Positions 12,151-26,850 are shown, counted from the stretch's first letter. The stretch is DNA of 64,000 bases from an uncultured Candidatus Saccharibacteria bacterium (GCA_964397855.1 CAYNKQ010000002.1:3884-67883), one strand, 5' to 3'. Notes: generated by a model not told the origin, from the sequence alone. Numbers and translations: made by a program.

Positions 12151-12180
12151 AAAAAATCTCCGCGAAACGGAGATTTTTTA
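12151..12180. terminator. Bidirectional rho-independent terminator shared by rplT (+) and rnpB (-)
   Basis: AAAAAATCTCCG-cgaaa-CGGAGATTTTTT. A-run and T-run flank a 7-bp GC-containing stem. Confidence 0.8.
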
Positions 12181-12528
12181 GTGTCAGATCATCTGTAAGC
12201 CGGGTTCTGTCGAGGATAATCATCTATCTAGACTTGTTGTTGCCAATAAGTTCAAGCGGTTCTTGCGGCACGATCACGGCGGACCGCCTATTGTGACCAC
12301 GCCTCCTTGCAGCAGACAGGGTTTACCTCTCTTCCATGTCACCATGGCCGACTGTGGGCTTTTACCCCACTCGTTTCACCTTTTCCCTTCAACAAGTTCA
12401 GGGTAGTTTCGTTTCTGTGGCACTTTCCCTAGGGTCACCCCCGGTTGCCGTTAGCAACTGTCTCGTCCTGTGCTGCCCGGACTTTCCTCTCCCAATAAAT
12501 TGGGGGCGATCATCCAATGATCTGACAC
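12181..12528 (-). ncRNA. rnpB: RNase P RNA, bacterial type A
   Basis: The minus strand contains GAGAGGAAAGUCCGGGC (rc of 12475-12491), GGGAAAGUGCCACAGAAA, GGUAAACCC and ACAGAACCCGGCUUAC (rc of 12195-12210). The P1 helix is formed by GUGUCAGAUCAU and AUGAUCUGACAC at the two ends. Confidence 0.9.
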
Positions 12529-18091: not shown

Positions 18092-18982
18092 CTATACTAG
18101 ATCTCCTCCTTGCTTCACAAACTCAACCGCGGCCTCAACAAGCTCTGATGAATCAGCAAACCAATCTATATCGTCACTTCGCTTAAACCAAGTTCTCTGG
18201 CGCTTTGCAAGTTTCATATCTGCTTGCACGAACGCACTTCTGAGTTCACTTTCACTAATTTCATCATTTAGATACCGAGTTACAGCACTGTAGCCAGGGG
18301 TCTTTAGAGACTCAACTGGTCCGTATACTTCGAGTAGTTGACAGGCTTCTTCTAGAAATCCATTGTCGAACATCAACTCAACTCGCTTGGTCACTCGGGA
18401 TCTAAGCTCGTCTCGGTCAAGAGTAATTCCTAGGACGACTGTTCTATCTCGAAGTTCTTGCTTAAACTTAGGGGCACCGTTACGCTCAATAGCTCGAATA
18501 ACATGCCGACGATTTTTTGTGTTCAAGAAATCAGTGTTGATATTTTTTGTGTTCAAAATCGTTGTTAATTCATCATCAGTCATCTGTTCTAGGGATAGCC
18601 TAGTTGTTGTATCAACTCTACCTAAGAATTGAAAATTATACAACAGTGCATCAATATATAGGCCGGTCCCACCCACAACAATCGGGGTTCTTCCCCTATT
18701 GGCAACTTCTTGAATACATTTGTTTGCAAGCTCCTGAAAGCGAGCGACGCTGAAAGTTTCATCAGGTTCGACAATGTTTATTAAGTGATGCGGAATATTC
18801 TGCTGCTCCTGCAAGCTTGGCTTAGCCGTACCTATATCCATTTTTTTGTATACAGTGCGTGAATCTGCACAAATAATTTCACCGTCTACCTTTTTTGCTA
18901 CTTGAATAGCGGCCGCAGTCTTGCCACTAGCAGTTTCCCCTACAATAACGACTAAAGGAGTCTGGGCTGGTTTGGATTCCAT
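18092..18982 (-). CDS. miaA: tRNA dimethylallyltransferase
   Basis: 296 aa. VVIVGETASGKTAAAIQVAKK...IICADSRTVYKKMDIGTAKP...IPHHLINIVEP...PIVVGGTGLYIDALL. Confidence 0.9.
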   Translation of the reverse strand: MESKPAQTPLVVIVGETASGKTAAAIQVAKKVDGEIICADSRTVYKKMDIGTAKPSLQEQQNIPHHLINIVEPDETFSVARFQELANKCIQEVANRGRTPIVVGGTGLYIDALLYNFQFLGRVDTTTRLSLEQMTDDELTTILNTKNINTDFLNTKNRRHVIRAIERNGAPKFKQELRDRTVVLGITLDRDELRSRVTKRVELMFDNGFLEEACQLLEVYGPVESLKTPGYSAVTRYLNDEISESELRSAFVQADMKLAKRQRTWFKRSDDIDWFADSSELVEAAVEFVKQGGDLV

Positions 18983-19295: not shown

Positions 19296-21143
19296 CTATA
19301 GGGATGATTTCTGAACACGCCCTTTAGTTTCGTGAACAATGCTCTGCATAAAGTTTTCGAGCGGATACGCTTTTTCTTTGCGACCATCTACAGCCAGATC
19401 TCCTCGAACACGAGGTGAAAGCTCTTTGGTTTCAAGTTCTTTCTCGCCAATTACAACAGTATAAGGAATCTTCATCAGCTCAGAATTGCGGATCTTTTTA
19501 CCGACGGATTCATTGGAACGATCAATCTGACATCTGATACCATTCTCTTTTGCAAATGTTGCAATTTCATCAACGAAACTATCAAGTTCAGGAGAGTCCT
19601 TTACTTGAATGATTCGTAGCTGTTCTGGCGCAAGCCAAACCGGGAACCTTCCGGCAGTATGCTCTATGTAGACACTGAGAAACCTTTCAAAAGAACCAAG
19701 CAACGCTTTATGGATCATGACCGGACGCCGCTTTGTGCCATCGTCAGCAATATATTCAAGTTCAAATCGTTCGGGCTGCAAAAAGTCCAACTGCTCGGTA
19801 GCAAGTTGCCATTCTCTACCCAGTGCATCTTTTGCCATGATATCGATCTTAGGACCGTAAAAGGCAGCTTCGCCTTCTTCAACTGTATAATCGAGCTCCA
19901 GTTTTTTGGCTACATCTTCAATTGTAGACTGAGCACTTTCCCAAAGTTTTTTGTCCCCAAGATACTTATCAGTCTCATCCCTAAAACTCAGTACCGCACG
20001 CCACTCCAGCTGGAACTTTGAATACATTTCTTTGATCATTCCCATAATTGATGTGAATTCTTCTTCGATTTGATCAACTCTACAAAATACGTGAGCATCG
20101 TCTTGCGTAGCACCACGAACCCTTGAAAGACCATGAAGCTCTCCGGCCTTTTCGTCGCGATACACAATCGTATTTTCCATGTATCGAATCGGGAGGTCAC
20201 GATAACTACGTGGTTTTGCGGCATATATTTGGGTGTGGTGAGGGCAGTTCATCGGCTTCATCATAAACTCATCACTCGATTCAGTACTTGTAACACTAAA
20301 GCGTTCTGGGTATTTGTCGTAGTGTCCAGATTTCTGGTACAGCGCGATCTTGGCAATGTGAGGTATTGAGACCCTTTCGTAACCAGCATTGGCTTGAAGT
20401 TCCTGGGAAAATTTGCCGATTTCTTCTCTGAGGATTGTGCCCCTCGGGGTGAATAGCGGTAAACCGGACCCAACCAGTTCAGAGAACACAAACAGATCAA
20501 GCTCTTGGCCAAGTTTTCGGTGATCGCGCTTCTTAGCCTCTTCGAGCATTTGCAAGTAGGTGTGCAACTCTTCCTTAGTCTCAAACGCCACCCCATAGAG
20601 ACGCTGCATCTGAGGATTACCTTCTTTGCCACGCCAATATGCGCCAGCTACGCGCATTAATTTAAATGCCCCCGTTTTGCCAGTATTTTCAACATGTGGA
20701 CCACGACAAAGATCGGTGAACTCGCCGTTACTGTAAAAAGATACATTTTCGACGGCAGCATCACCTTCGGTAATAGTGCCCAGCTCACCAGCGTCTAGGT
20801 CTTTTGCAATCGTAGTACCAGCACGCTTAAGATCATTTAGTAGCTCTTCTTTATAGGGCTGTTTCGATGCCTGAGCCCACTCGAGTGCATCATCGATAGA
20901 TTTTTCTGAACGTTCAAATTCCTGCTTTTGATTTACAACTTTACGCATCTGCTCTTCAATTTTTTTAAAGTCTTCTGTTGAGATAGTTACATTTGGAATG
21001 TCGATATCGTAGTAAAAACCATTTTCCACTACAGGGCCGACACCGAGCTTTGCCTCTGGCCATAAGGTCGTTACGGCAGTTGCCATAATGTGCGCTAAAC
21101 TGTGGCGCATTGCATGAAGTTGGTCGGTTTGTTGATCTGCCAT
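19296..21143 (-). CDS. thrS: Threonyl-tRNA synthetase
   Basis: 615 aa. Editing-domain motif HAMRHSLAHIMA. Class II motifs FMMKPMNCPHH and GLSRVRGATQDDAHVF. Anticodon-binding C-terminus. Confidence 0.95.
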   Translation of the reverse strand: MADQQTDQLHAMRHSLAHIMATAVTTLWPEAKLGVGPVVENGFYYDIDIPNVTISTEDFKKIEEQMRKVVNQKQEFERSEKSIDDALEWAQASKQPYKEELLNDLKRAGTTIAKDLDAGELGTITEGDAAVENVSFYSNGEFTDLCRGPHVENTGKTGAFKLMRVAGAYWRGKEGNPQMQRLYGVAFETKEELHTYLQMLEEAKKRDHRKLGQELDLFVFSELVGSGLPLFTPRGTILREEIGKFSQELQANAGYERVSIPHIAKIALYQKSGHYDKYPERFSVTSTESSDEFMMKPMNCPHHTQIYAAKPRSYRDLPIRYMENTIVYRDEKAGELHGLSRVRGATQDDAHVFCRVDQIEEEFTSIMGMIKEMYSKFQLEWRAVLSFRDETDKYLGDKKLWESAQSTIEDVAKKLELDYTVEEGEAAFYGPKIDIMAKDALGREWQLATEQLDFLQPERFELEYIADDGTKRRPVMIHKALLGSFERFLSVYIEHTAGRFPVWLAPEQLRIIQVKDSPELDSFVDEIATFAKENGIRCQIDRSNESVGKKIRNSELMKIPYTVVIGEKELETKELSPRVRGDLAVDGRKEKAYPLENFMQSIVHETKGRVQKSSL

Positions 21144-21401
21144 ACTGTTCCTTTCTGGCTTAATAATTACAAAAACACGCTACTAGACGAATTATTTTCA
21201 TCTGTTAGCGTGTTTCGGGCCCGTTACCAGGCTGTTCCACCGAAATCTTTCACTCTTACCAGCACTAGTTACAGGTGTTCTGGTCTTGCCCCTGGAGCTC
21301 CACAGTTCGTTACACTGCTTCTATGCTTAATCTTATTGTACCACTTTGGTTCTTCGACTTACTCAGAATCATTCATTTTGATTAACCATGAGTTTGTCGA
21401 A
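21144..21401 (-). promoter_or_regulatory. Candidate T-box riboswitch leader of thrS (antiterminator/terminator)
   Basis: Minus strand GAUUUCGGUGGAACAGCC (rc of 21230-21247) matches T-box AAUUAGGGUGGUACCGCG at 13/18 positions, including the GGUGGNAC core. Antiterminator: UUUCGG/CCGAAA, a 7-nt bulge UGGAACA, and GCCU/GGGC. Competing terminator: ACACGCUA (21182-21175) / UAGCGUGU (21213-21206), then a U-run. I did not fold Stem I convincingly. Confidence 0.5.
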
Positions 21402-21478
21402 TGGTGGGCGATGGAGGATTTGAACCTCCCACCTCCTCAACGTCAATGAGGCGCTCTAGCCAAATGAGCTAATCGCCC
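21402..21478 (-). tRNA. tRNA-Val (anticodon GAC), CCA encoded
   Basis: Minus strand GGGCGAU-UA-GCUC-AUUUGGCUA-GAGC-G-CCUCA-UUGACGU-UGAGG-AGGUG-GGAGG-UUCAAAU-CCUCC-AUCGCCC-ACCA. Confidence 0.9.
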
Positions 21479-21553: not shown

Positions 21554-22177
21554 TCAAGAGAGCCTCCTAACGACACTCCCAAGCCAAAGTGACTGAGGCA
21601 CGTTAACTAAAGATCTCGTTGCAATACACCGCTGCTTTGATCCAAAATTTACATCAACCAAAACAGGAGCATCTGTAACTTGACCAGGCAGGGTGCCAAC
21701 TAACAAGTTGTGTGAAGCCGCTGGCCTAGGTAGGCCACCAGGCCTCCCCCATAAATCGGGCATGTGCCCCGTTTCACGCCTCATTTGCCTGCTCCGTTGA
21801 TACACTTCAGTAATCTCATCTATCACAGTATCATCTACCTCAGCGGAAGCTAGATAGCATTCCACGCTCACACCCTCCATGAATGGCTGCTGCTGCTCGA
21901 CCACCCATAGCCCGCTTCCAATTGAGAGCATGTCAATCTCGGTACTTATAGCAATACCACCCAAGTGGGTCTCTATCAACTCTAGCTCTTGTCGTAAAAT
22001 ATCCCTAAACCGTCTTGCTTCGCTACGACTAAAAGTATCGTGGGAGACCTTCACTACTCGAGGCTCATCAACATCACGATATGCCTGAAACCCTTTTCCA
22101 GACCCAATTTTTACAAAGCTATCACCTGGGTATTCGGCAGCCTCGTGCGCAGCACTCAAGAAGTGTACTCCTCGCAA
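21554..22177 (-). CDS. Hypothetical protein with protein-kinase-like motif spacing
   Basis: 207 aa. VVKVSH (candidate beta3 Lys), ELELIE, HMPDLWGRPG...NLLV, VLVDVNFG (DFG-like). Overlaps the tgt 3' end by 22 nt. By eye it looks more G+C-rich than its neighbours. Confidence 0.5.
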   Translation of the reverse strand: MRGVHFLSAAHEAAEYPGDSFVKIGSGKGFQAYRDVDEPRVVKVSHDTFSRSEARRFRDILRQELELIETHLGGIAISTEIDMLSIGSGLWVVEQQQPFMEGVSVECYLASAEVDDTVIDEITEVYQRSRQMRRETGHMPDLWGRPGGLPRPAASHNLLVGTLPGQVTDAPVLVDVNFGSKQRCIATRSLVNVPQSLWLGSVVRRLS

Positions 22178-23229
22178 ATCCGCTGGAGATAACGAATATT
22201 ATGTATTGAAGCCAGAGTCCCAGCTAGCGGCTCCCCTACTTTAAACTGGTGTCGCAAGAATCCACGTGAGAATTTGTTCACGCAAGTATAGCAGTCACAT
22301 ATATCATCTATGACGTTCGTACTTAGCTTATGTATCTCAGATTTGAGATTAAGACGTTCATCACCAGATGACCACACGCTACCATGCCGAGCGTTCCTGG
22401 TTGGAATAACACAGTCAAGCATGTCAAAACCGCACTCAATAGCCTTTCTAAGATCTCGCGGATCACCCACCCCAAGTAAGAATCGTGGTCGATTAGAATC
22501 ATCAAATAGCGGGGCAAGAAATTCAAACATTTCATGCATCTCTTCCCTAGTCTCTCCAACCGAAAGCCCGCCAATTGCTATGCCACCAACAGGTAGACCC
22601 TGGACAATCTCTAAGCTTTTTCTTCTAAGTTCTTTGTCTAACCCACCTTGCACAACACCAAAAAGCAGCGGCTTCTCTTCGTCTGTCATATCCTGAGTGA
22701 GTCGATTATACTCAGCGATACTACGTTCTAACCAGCGATGAGTTCTTTCGAATGCCTCTTGAGTTCTACCGCGGGCCGCTTGTTCCAGCGAAACAACATC
22801 GTCAAAAGCGACAATCATATCCGCGCCAAGCTTCATTTGTATTTGAATCGAAATTTCAGGAGAAAGGAATACAATGTCACCAGACCGTGGATCTTTAAAT
22901 GTGACACCCTCTTCAGCGATCTTATTAATGTGGGCCAGCGAGAATACTTGAAAACCACCTGAGTCCGTAAGCATGGGTAAATCTTGACCGGTAAAAGTGT
23001 GGAGACCACCCAACGATGCTACGACACCTTCACCCGGTTGCATATGTAAGTGATACGTATTCGCAAGTACAACCTGTACGCCAGTAGATTTCACCATCTC
23101 GGGTGTCAACGACTTAACCGCACCCCGAGTACCATCGGGCATAAACGTCGGGGTAATAATATTCTTACCGCGGACAGTTAGTTCGCCAGTACGTGAATAC
23201 TCGCCTATCTTCTTTTTCTCTACATACAT
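22156..23229 (-). CDS. tgt: Queuine tRNA-ribosyltransferase (tRNA-guanine transglycosylase)
   Basis: 357 aa. TPTFMPDGTRGAVK, VLANTYHL, MLTDSGGFQVFSL, and the Zn site CDCYTC...H. Confidence 0.93.
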   Translation of the reverse strand: MYVEKKKIGEYSRTGELTVRGKNIITPTFMPDGTRGAVKSLTPEMVKSTGVQVVLANTYHLHMQPGEGVVASLGGLHTFTGQDLPMLTDSGGFQVFSLAHINKIAEEGVTFKDPRSGDIVFLSPEISIQIQMKLGADMIVAFDDVVSLEQAARGRTQEAFERTHRWLERSIAEYNRLTQDMTDEEKPLLFGVVQGGLDKELRRKSLEIVQGLPVGGIAIGGLSVGETREEMHEMFEFLAPLFDDSNRPRFLLGVGDPRDLRKAIECGFDMLDCVIPTRNARHGSVWSSGDERLNLKSEIHKLSTNVIDDICDCYTCVNKFSRGFLRHQFKVGEPLAGTLASIHNIRYLQRICEEYTS

Positions 23230-26773: not shown

Positions 26774-26850
26774 TGGAGCCGCCTCGGGGATTCGAACCCC
26801 GGACCCCCACTTTACGAAAGTGGTGCTCTAGCCAACTGAGCTAAGGCGGC
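26774..26850 (-). tRNA. tRNA-Thr (anticodon CGU), discriminator U73, CCA encoded
   Basis: Minus strand GCCGCCU-UA-GCUC-AGUUGGCUA-GAGC-A-CCACU-UUCGUAA-AGUGG-GGGUC-CGGGG-UUCGAAU-CCCCG-AGGCGGC-U-CCA. Confidence 0.9.

Follow-up and report, generated by a model that had tools for sequence, protein, structure and literature searches.

We analyzed a stretch of 64,000 nucleotides of DNA from an uncultured Candidatus Saccharibacteria bacterium (the window), and within it the leader of thrS, which encodes threonine--tRNA ligase. Read on the minus strand, this leader (about 21144-21329) is probably a tRNA-Thr-sensing T-box riboswitch of reduced architecture with its own extended -10 promoter, judging from its sequence and its conservation in related genomes. 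A covariance model of the element (model R1, described below) matches the window once, at 21208-21329 with 107 bits and E = 7.5e-25, and gives 62 significant matches in 80 related thrS loci, every one of them upstream of thrS and on the thrS strand. The original prediction, made from the window alone, had called the leader a candidate T-box with a textbook antiterminator fold and a bulge that matches tRNA-Thr; a T-box on thrS specific for tRNA-Thr is supported by family covariation, by the codon that the leader displays and by its bulge, whereas the architecture proves reduced rather than textbook.

Of the 258 nt between tRNA-Val(GAC) and the thrS ATG, to which the original prediction referred, the leader proper takes up approximately 186. 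The far end (21353-21401, minus strand), which directly adjoins tRNA-Val and precedes the T-box promoter, forms a 49-nt near-perfect hairpin, UUCGAC...GUCGAA, which has no U-run and is not conserved, being missing where the promoter directly follows the tRNA (L019 and L062 of the loci numbered below). The whole leader folds far better than shuffled versions of it (z = -5.1). The gene downstream is thrS, as proposed, and the features discussed here are as follows.

19296-21143, minus strand: thrS, the regulated gene, which encodes threonine--tRNA ligase (TIGR00418 at 642 bits, where the cut-off is 384; ATG at 21143-21141)
21148-21155, minus strand: Shine-Dalgarno-like GAAAGGAA (direct reading), unpaired and arranged alike in relatives
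21171-21212, minus strand: intrinsic-terminator-like two-tier hairpin (21176-21212) and U5 (21171-21175), about -17 kcal/mol, starting at the invariant C directly 3' of antiterminator helix A1
21213-21245, minus strand: T-box antiterminator, with GAUUUCGGUGGAACAGCC at 21231-21248 (direct reading and covariation)
21246-21257, minus strand: purine linker AAGAG-UG-AAAGA, AAGAGUGAAAGA (12 nt), in the RRRxG/AA purine-string position, from pseudoknot to A1
21258-21294, minus strand: compact H-type pseudoknot in place of the Stem II domain (covariation)
21296-21327, minus strand: Stem I with a K-turn at its base (invariant GAs, covariation, RNAalifold)
21307-21310, minus strand: specifier codon ACG (21308-21310) and 3' purine A (21307) (loop conservation; complementary to the anticodon of the tRNA-Thr(CGU) below)
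21335-21343, minus strand: extended -10 promoter-like site TGGTACAAT (family conservation at a fixed distance)
21402-21478, minus strand: tRNA-Val(GAC), the upstream neighbor of the leader
26774-26850, minus strand: tRNA-Thr(CGU), the predicted ligand (ARAGORN and Rfam tRNA matches; sequence read)

A conserved family of thrS leaders

Motif matching contributes little to the case. The bare motif GGTGGNACC (also quoted as GGUGGNAC) occurs 31 times in the window with at most one mismatch, against 28.7 occurrences expected, and this weakens any argument built on it; because it is found at chance frequency it is unusable as evidence. Identity to the conserved T-box sequence, put at 13 of 18 positions in the original prediction, comes to 12 of 18 by our count and to 13 if the variable N is included. 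A generic promoter and terminator scan found 0 sites in the leader, which weakens the case as first made; the scan came up blank because it needs a -35 hexamer and a loop of 3-8 nt, and here there are an extended -10 site and a two-tier hairpin with an internal loop.

Relatives were collected with a ThrRS protein search (one genome per species), which gave 80 Saccharibacteria thrS loci (L001-L080; 60-76% identity). In approximately 55 of the 80, GGUGGAAC lies about 80-150 nt upstream of thrS, between flanking helices that vary in sequence. The structure was drawn by hand on an 18-sequence MAFFT alignment and model R1 was built from that structure; sequences outside the seed score 93-110 bits. 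For covariation we used a MAFFT alignment of 28 sequences that had been made without any fitting to the structure, and controls in which the pairing partners were slid by 1-3 columns. Paired cells amount to 86.9% (28-38% in the slid controls), double-sided changes are present in 24 of 27 pairs, and the covariation score is 0.54 (0.07-0.11 in the controls), with the observed values reached by 0 of 500 shuffles; all six helices, the pseudoknot included, carry compensatory changes. RNAalifold, run unguided, recovered the K-turn stem, upper Stem I, pseudoknot helix IIB and antiterminator helix A2. It also returned an alternative to helix A1, in which the G-U-G of the T-box pairs with the C-R-C that follows A1; this alternative has zero double-sided changes and the wrong regulatory logic, and it was not adopted.

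These data also bear on whether the resemblance to a T-box could be due to chance, the leader being an ordinary structured 5' untranslated region, or a terminator of tRNA-Val, that happens to contain GGUGGAAC. That 9-mer does occur at chance frequency in the window, and there is no Rfam match; the whole architecture, however, is common to 62 orthologous leaders with compensatory changes in six helices, and the element is present, with its own promoter, whether tRNA-Val is adjacent, distant or on the opposite strand. We regard this explanation as already refuted, with next to no probability left to it. The element is missing in 18-20 of the 80 species; in these, thrS has a short leader preceded by another conserved unit. 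A metagenome scan with a specifier-free pattern returned 80 loci, of which 77 are chance matches and three are real, the latter again being thrS leaders with ACC.

Stem I, the pseudoknot and the antiterminator

A TANNNT hexamer is found upstream in 54 of 58 members; in 44 its distance to the model start is fixed at 5-6 nt, and in 39 it is preceded by TGn. Because this -10 element stands at a fixed distance, the 5' end of the RNA is placed at the riboswitch itself, with a predicted transcription start at about 21328-21329, that is, at the K-turn and the first base pairs of the element.

Stem I begins with a C-stem (AGC at 21325-21327 with GCU at 21296-21298, plus a 3-nt bulge; 100% paired, 3/3 pairs compensated), continues through the tandem G.A pairs of the K-turn (GA at 21320-21321 with GA at 21299-21300, both dinucleotides invariant) into a 5-bp upper stem (GCAGU at 21314-21318 with ACUGU at 21302-21306; 84% paired, 4/5 compensated), and ends in a 7-nt apical loop, GUAACGA (21307-21313). 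This loop reads N-U-N-A-C-N-R in 54 of 54 complete members, with variation confined to the wobble base, such that an ACN codon is displayed in Stem I throughout and always encodes Thr (ACC in 39, ACG in 8, ACU in 6 and ACA in 1; 28% non-C). The base 3' of the codon is A in 53 members and G in one. In the window the specifier is ACG, and not the ACC-A at 21282-21284 that was put forward in the original prediction, which is actually part of the covarying 5' strand of pseudoknot helix IIB.

That the regulated gene is thrS would suit an operator for ThrRS, at which the enzyme regulates its own synthesis by tRNA mimicry, as at E. coli thrS, rather than a sensor of tRNA; consistent with this, CUGGUAA, which resembles the anticodon loop of tRNA-Thr(GGU), can be read twice in the window leader. 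The two copies are the 3' strand of the pseudoknot and the A2 loop, however, neither of which is conserved as sequence in relatives, and the conserved apical loop displays the codon sense ACN and not the anticodon NGU. The anticodon-arm mimics that stand beside the Shine-Dalgarno (SD) sequence in an E. coli-type thrS operator are absent here, and the conserved structures are not next to the SD; moreover, the K-turn, the UGGA-ACC bulge and the RRRxG-Stem III-AA arrangement are T-box features without a role in the E. coli operator. We consider the operator explanation very improbable and retain the T-box interpretation in what follows.

Downstream of Stem I, a pseudoknot of 29-39 nt makes up the entire middle domain. 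Helix IIA pairs CAGG (21291-21294) with CCUG (21272-21275) and helix IIB pairs ACCAG (21280-21284) with CUGGU (21258-21262); each is 84% paired, with all pairs compensated (4/4 and 5/5, respectively). An F-box-like CCUGUAA (21269-21275) spans the 3' strand of IIA and the following loop, and occurs in the family as CCUGUAA, CCCGUUA or UACGUUA, where Nocardia farcinica has CCGUCA. The IIA/B pseudoknot of known T-boxes measures 21 nt, and sequence cannot prove that it and the present one are homologous.

The segment between the pseudoknot and A1 divides the family into two groups that share the same pseudoknot. In group B (about 20 relatives) it has exactly the published form 5'-RRRxG-Stem III-AA-3', for example AAGUG-CCUAAACAUUUUAGG-AA-GUCCGG, with a hairpin that covaries and whose sequence diverges widely among species. 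Group A (about 28 members, including the window) keeps AAGAG and the A-run, with 1-2 nt instead of the hairpin. Across the family the sensing core occupies 112-182 nt, of which the window has 115 (21213-21327), and the decoding module approximately 70 nt.

The antiterminator follows, and on direct reading its motif and fold (A1, 7-nt bulge, A2) are as the original prediction described them. Helix A1 pairs UUUCGG (21240-21245) with CCGAAA (21213-21218; 80% paired, 4/6 compensated), and helix A2 pairs GCCU (21229-21232) with GGGC (21219-21222) around a GGUAAC loop (97% paired, 4/4 compensated). Between them lies the bulge UGGAACA (21233-21239), whose UGGA is complementary to the tRNA 3' end UCCA and invariant in 54 of 54 members; its 3' half, scored in 51 members, is ACC in 47 and ACA in 4, with the window among the latter. 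The tRNA-Thr(CGU) gene was found where the original prediction had placed it, with U73 and an encoded CCA that match UGGA. Insertions of 40-90 nt are present in the A2 loop of L004, L005, L013, L034, L063 and L064, with a recurring GAAGGGC...GCCCUUC hairpin, and similar copies lie downstream of the terminator in L003 and L005; this insert could be a small mobile or lineage-specific element. A2 insertions are typical of short-Stem-I T-boxes (PMC7583486).

We infer tRNA binding, aminoacylation sensing and antitermination from this anatomy, and the mechanism would run as follows. The apical loop, on its ultrashort K-turn stem, would present ACG and the stacking purine to the anticodon of tRNA-Thr(CGU), and the compact pseudoknot in the Stem II position would orient both halves of the RNA. 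The UGGA of the bulge would pair with the uncharged 3' end, U73-C-C-A, and together with the RRRxG/AA purine string would stabilize A1 and A2. Stabilized A1, which abuts the terminator and shares its last nucleotide or nucleotides with it, would keep the hairpin from closing in RNA polymerase. When tRNA-Thr is undercharged, transcription would then read into thrS; when the tRNA is charged or absent, A1 would be unlocked, the terminator would form, and transcription would stop 27 nt before the start codon.

The proposed termination step and the reduced architecture

An intrinsic terminator approximately 25 nt before the start codon had been proposed, and the hairpin and its U5 do end 27 nt before the thrS ATG. 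A hairpin followed by at least four U is present in 55 of 57 members, always contiguous with A1 and never with a spacer, so that bulge and terminator are both kept in orthologous leaders. The terminator stem starts within the 6-7 nt of the A1 3' strand (at offset 6 in 33 members, 4 in 17 and 2 in 3), and the SD, both in the window and in relatives, follows the U-run and has no part in the hairpin. The C at 21212 (minus strand), directly 3' of A1, is invariant in relatives, and the C two positions on is nearly so (C-R-C); the invariant C closes A1 in most relatives and also makes the first pair of the terminator, an unusual conservation for the start of a terminator stem.

Three further observations concern this region. 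Leader-peptide attenuation was rejected, since direct reading shows no Thr codon in the sole small open reading frame (ORF) of the leader, MKIIRLVACFCNY, which lies within the terminator. The heptamer UGCGAGA recurs as an apical hairpin loop across L001-L080, where 514 kb contain it 102 times and about 63 would be expected. In 50 cases it sits in the loop of a stem of 6 bp or longer, and 32 of those have a U-run behind them; it is seen, for example, in terminator loops of L017, L020, L022, L029, L031, L038, L052, L055, L057, L060, L061, L067-L069 and L074. UGCGAGA is a terminator loop typical of the lineage, and it is not enriched in this window. Finally, at about 10 loci the T-box terminator is separated from thrS by a small gene, which differs by locus and which overlaps the beginning of thrS (by eye, a GNAT-like acetyltransferase of 179 aa in L033 at 1963-2502, a MazG-like protein of 104 aa in L047 at 2190-2504 and a Nudix-box protein of 156 aa in L028 at 2031-2501); because of their position between terminator and thrS, these genes would be co-regulated with thrS.

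Several findings weigh against the interpretation of the leader as a T-box that switches a terminator. The Rfam T-box model (RF00230), with which the original prediction proposed to check the leader, gave no significant match: a scan of the window and of 20 relatives at the gathering threshold yielded only tRNAs, and relaxing the threshold to E ≤ 10 gave nothing but noise for the window leader and for the Stem III-containing relative L020. Stem I, of 32 nt, has no distal platform, and in every member it is capped by the 7-nt specifier loop. An S-turn Stem II would not fit, the 29-39 nt from Stem I to RRRxG being all pseudoknot where the canonical domain has about 70 nt, and no Stem III hairpin is possible in the 12 nt at 21246-21257 of the window or, likewise, in the roughly 28 members of group A. 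The closing pair of A2, for which the canonical pair is G.U, is G-C in 23 of 51 members (the window among them), U-A in 11 and G.U in 11. The discriminator match of UGGA with U73-CCA is a sample of one, there being a single tRNA-Thr in the fetched loci and a UGGA that never varies, and all 65 members of the family, three of them from metagenomes, are thrS leaders, which means that only one amino acid is represented. The terminator overlaps A1 by 0-5 nt and A2 by none, with a single shared C in 33 of 55 members, and in the window the antiterminator (-9.1 kcal/mol), the terminator core (-17.6 kcal/mol) and both together (-26.7 kcal/mol) have energies indicating that the two folds are compatible.

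The negative result with RF00230 is not valid as a refutation for this lineage, because the features that define a T-box are present in the orthologous leaders and are backed by strong covariation. The last two points bear on the alternation of terminator and antiterminator in the original prediction, of which one part stands, in that hairpin and U-run adjoin A1, and the other part does not, in that the strand swap is weak and both folds can coexist; in the window, competition with A1 is limited to an extension that pairs GAAA with the U-tract. They could indicate a genuine T-box-derived, tRNA-binding leader whose output is something other than strand exchange between terminator and antiterminator: the hairpin and U-run would be a constitutive leaky attenuator, or an element of RNA stability or processing, and the tRNA would act on mRNA decay, pausing or translation. 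The short overlap and the compatibility of both structures suit such an output; in canonical T-boxes, by comparison, about 12 nt from the 3' strands of A1 and A2 turn into the terminator 5' strand (PMC7583486). Against it stand the lack of any spacer between A1 and terminator in all 55 members, the invariance of the first stem C with its second role in closing A1, and the SD, which is never within the hairpin. A constitutive terminator would moreover be implausible at this site: the terminator must be conditional, because the 27 nt that separate it from an essential gene leave too little space for a further promoter, and this argument is stronger than that from coupling. A non-classical output of this kind seems unlikely to us, though less so than either of the alternatives weighed above.

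For the riboswitch with a conditional terminator, which we prefer, the switching step is the least certain part and the weakest link. Coupling might be achieved by abutment, our hypothesis being that A1/A2, locked by tRNA and joined to the terminator with zero linker, would hinder closure of the hairpin bottom in the RNA exit channel of the polymerase.

The closest known relatives in form are the ileS T-boxes of Actinobacteria with ultrashort Stem I (Mycobacterium and N. farcinica; Sherwood et al. 2015 per PMC7583486, PMC10651847), in which a short Stem I with the specifier in its apical loop belongs to translational regulators (PMC7583486). They resemble the Saccharibacteria family in the 5'-most K-turn, the apical specifier and the lack of a platform; downstream, both have a pseudoknot that includes an F-box-like sequence, and both have a UGGN-ACC bulge and an A1/A2 discriminator. 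In N. farcinica ileS the codon occupies nt 16-18 and the purine is A19; here, counted from the K-turn stem, the codon is at nt 18-20 and the purine at nt 21. The two differ in gene, codon and phylum (ileS/AUC in Actinobacteria, thrS/ACN here), and in output, with an SD sequestrator in ileS T-boxes and a hairpin, U-run and free SD here. They also differ in decoding module, which measures 99 nt in N. farcinica and 87 nt in Mycobacterium tuberculosis (PMC10651847), including an S-turn Stem II of about 48 nt and the 21-nt pseudoknot, compared with approximately 70 nt and a single 29-39-nt pseudoknot here. In the short-Stem-I ileS T-boxes the Stem II domain of about 70 nt (S-turn Stem II plus 21-nt IIA/B pseudoknot) is essential, and Stem III, set in the purine string 5'-RRRxG-Stem III-AA-3', is called 'indispensable' for the discriminator (PMC7583486); the ileS T-boxes keep Stem III, and the subgroup of the window is without it.

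T-box control of thrS is classical, and the regulatory idea itself is not new. The transcriptional T-boxes of Firmicutes, including that of Bacillus subtilis thrS (RF00230; 'class I' in TBDB), share the gene and the logic with the present family, as well as the Thr codon and purine, the UGGN bulge, the RRRxG/AA string, A1/A2 and a terminator before the coding region. Compared with them, the leader described here lacks the long Stem I, whose platform consists of an AG bulge and a distal loop, as well as the S-turn Stem II and, in the subgroup of the window, Stem III; its A2 G.U closing pair is not conserved, its terminator takes up 0-5 nt rather than about 12, and RF00230 is blind to it. Known T-boxes sense the aminoacyl group sterically, mainly through the G.U pair that closes A2, and under the 'C rule' the third specifier base is overwhelmingly C, which has been ascribed to contact of the S-turn with tRNA G34 (PMC7583486); the relaxed C rule in our family fits the missing S-turn Stem II. 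A precedent is found in glyQS T-boxes, which dispense with Stem II owing to G-C-rich codon-anticodon pairing (PMC7583486), and the Thr codons ACC and ACG likewise form two G-C pairs. The glyQS T-boxes compensate with a long Stem I that has an elbow-binding platform, and they keep Stem III; here there is no platform and group A has no Stem III, and the pseudoknot is kept.

We therefore suggest, tentatively and with somewhat more doubt than confidence, that Saccharibacteria may possess a natural minimal T-box whose sensing core takes up 112-127 nt (115 nt in the window), in which a co-transcriptional termination decision is made without the elbow platform, without S-turn Stem II and, in one subgroup, without Stem III. 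Possible compensations are a pseudoknot in a double role, a terminator that abuts rather than swaps strands, or an unknown protein cofactor.

Gene neighborhood and significance for Saccharibacteria

Several genes around thrS are related to tRNA: RNase P RNA (12180-12525, minus strand, 250 bits), miaA directly downstream (18092-18982, minus strand) and tgt upstream (22156-23229, minus strand), with five tRNA genes at up to 20 kb in the thrS neighborhood; no other aminoacyl-tRNA synthetase genes were found within the window. A mechanical ORF list contains a 115-aa GTG ORF on the opposite strand (21102-21449, plus strand) that covers the entire leader and part of tRNA-Val; since it shares its sequence with a tRNA gene and a conserved RNA, this ORF is almost certainly spurious. 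A conserved unit of about 130 nt, with a promoter-like TAGTACTAGCCTTATAATAC, ..AGGUGA(A/G)UUUUGC.. and a terminator hairpin, recurs near thrS in numerous Saccharibacteria, being found about 100-330 nt upstream of thrS in L002, L009, L010, L075 and L078, and upstream of the T-box in L035, L039, L052, L056, L061 and L069. The unit looks like an unannotated small RNA gene; Rfam gave only tRNAs in 20 of the loci, and the unit is undetectable in this window.

Saccharibacteria (Patescibacteria, or Candidate Phyla Radiation) are obligate epibionts with reduced genomes, in which gene regulation is virtually unknown (PMC11665869). In the full-text literature, with subscription-only literature outside the search, no paper was found that combines the T-box with Saccharibacteria, Candidate Phyla Radiation or Patescibacteria, and none of the full-text papers that mention riboswitches together with Saccharibacteria describes native ones. 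The short-Stem-I model of TBDB was run only on Actinobacteria, with RF00230 used otherwise (PMC7778990). Because RF00230 fails here and the short-Stem-I model was restricted in this way, the family would be overlooked by existing pipelines, and we regard it, subscription-only literature aside, as an undescribed variant of the T-box.

The extension of the T-box mechanism to Saccharibacteria is new, as is a combination that was thought incompatible, namely that of an ultrashort Stem I, so far found in translational T-boxes, with an intrinsic terminator and no S-turn Stem II. Structural and kinetic work deems the platform, S-turn Stem II and Stem III each necessary in its context; if our interpretation is true, fast capture of tRNA and sensing of its aminoacylation would be possible in a much smaller RNA. 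What minimal RNA can read both the identity and the charge of a tRNA becomes a directly testable question, for which nature supplies a 115-nt sequence and about 60 variants, and in which groups A and B provide a built-in comparison without and with Stem III. The leader would also be the first native sensor of amino-acid starvation described in the Candidate Phyla Radiation. In a cell that is unable to make amino acids and has to obtain them from its actinobacterial host, a sensor of tRNA-Thr charging would be a plausible read-out of host attachment versus starvation.

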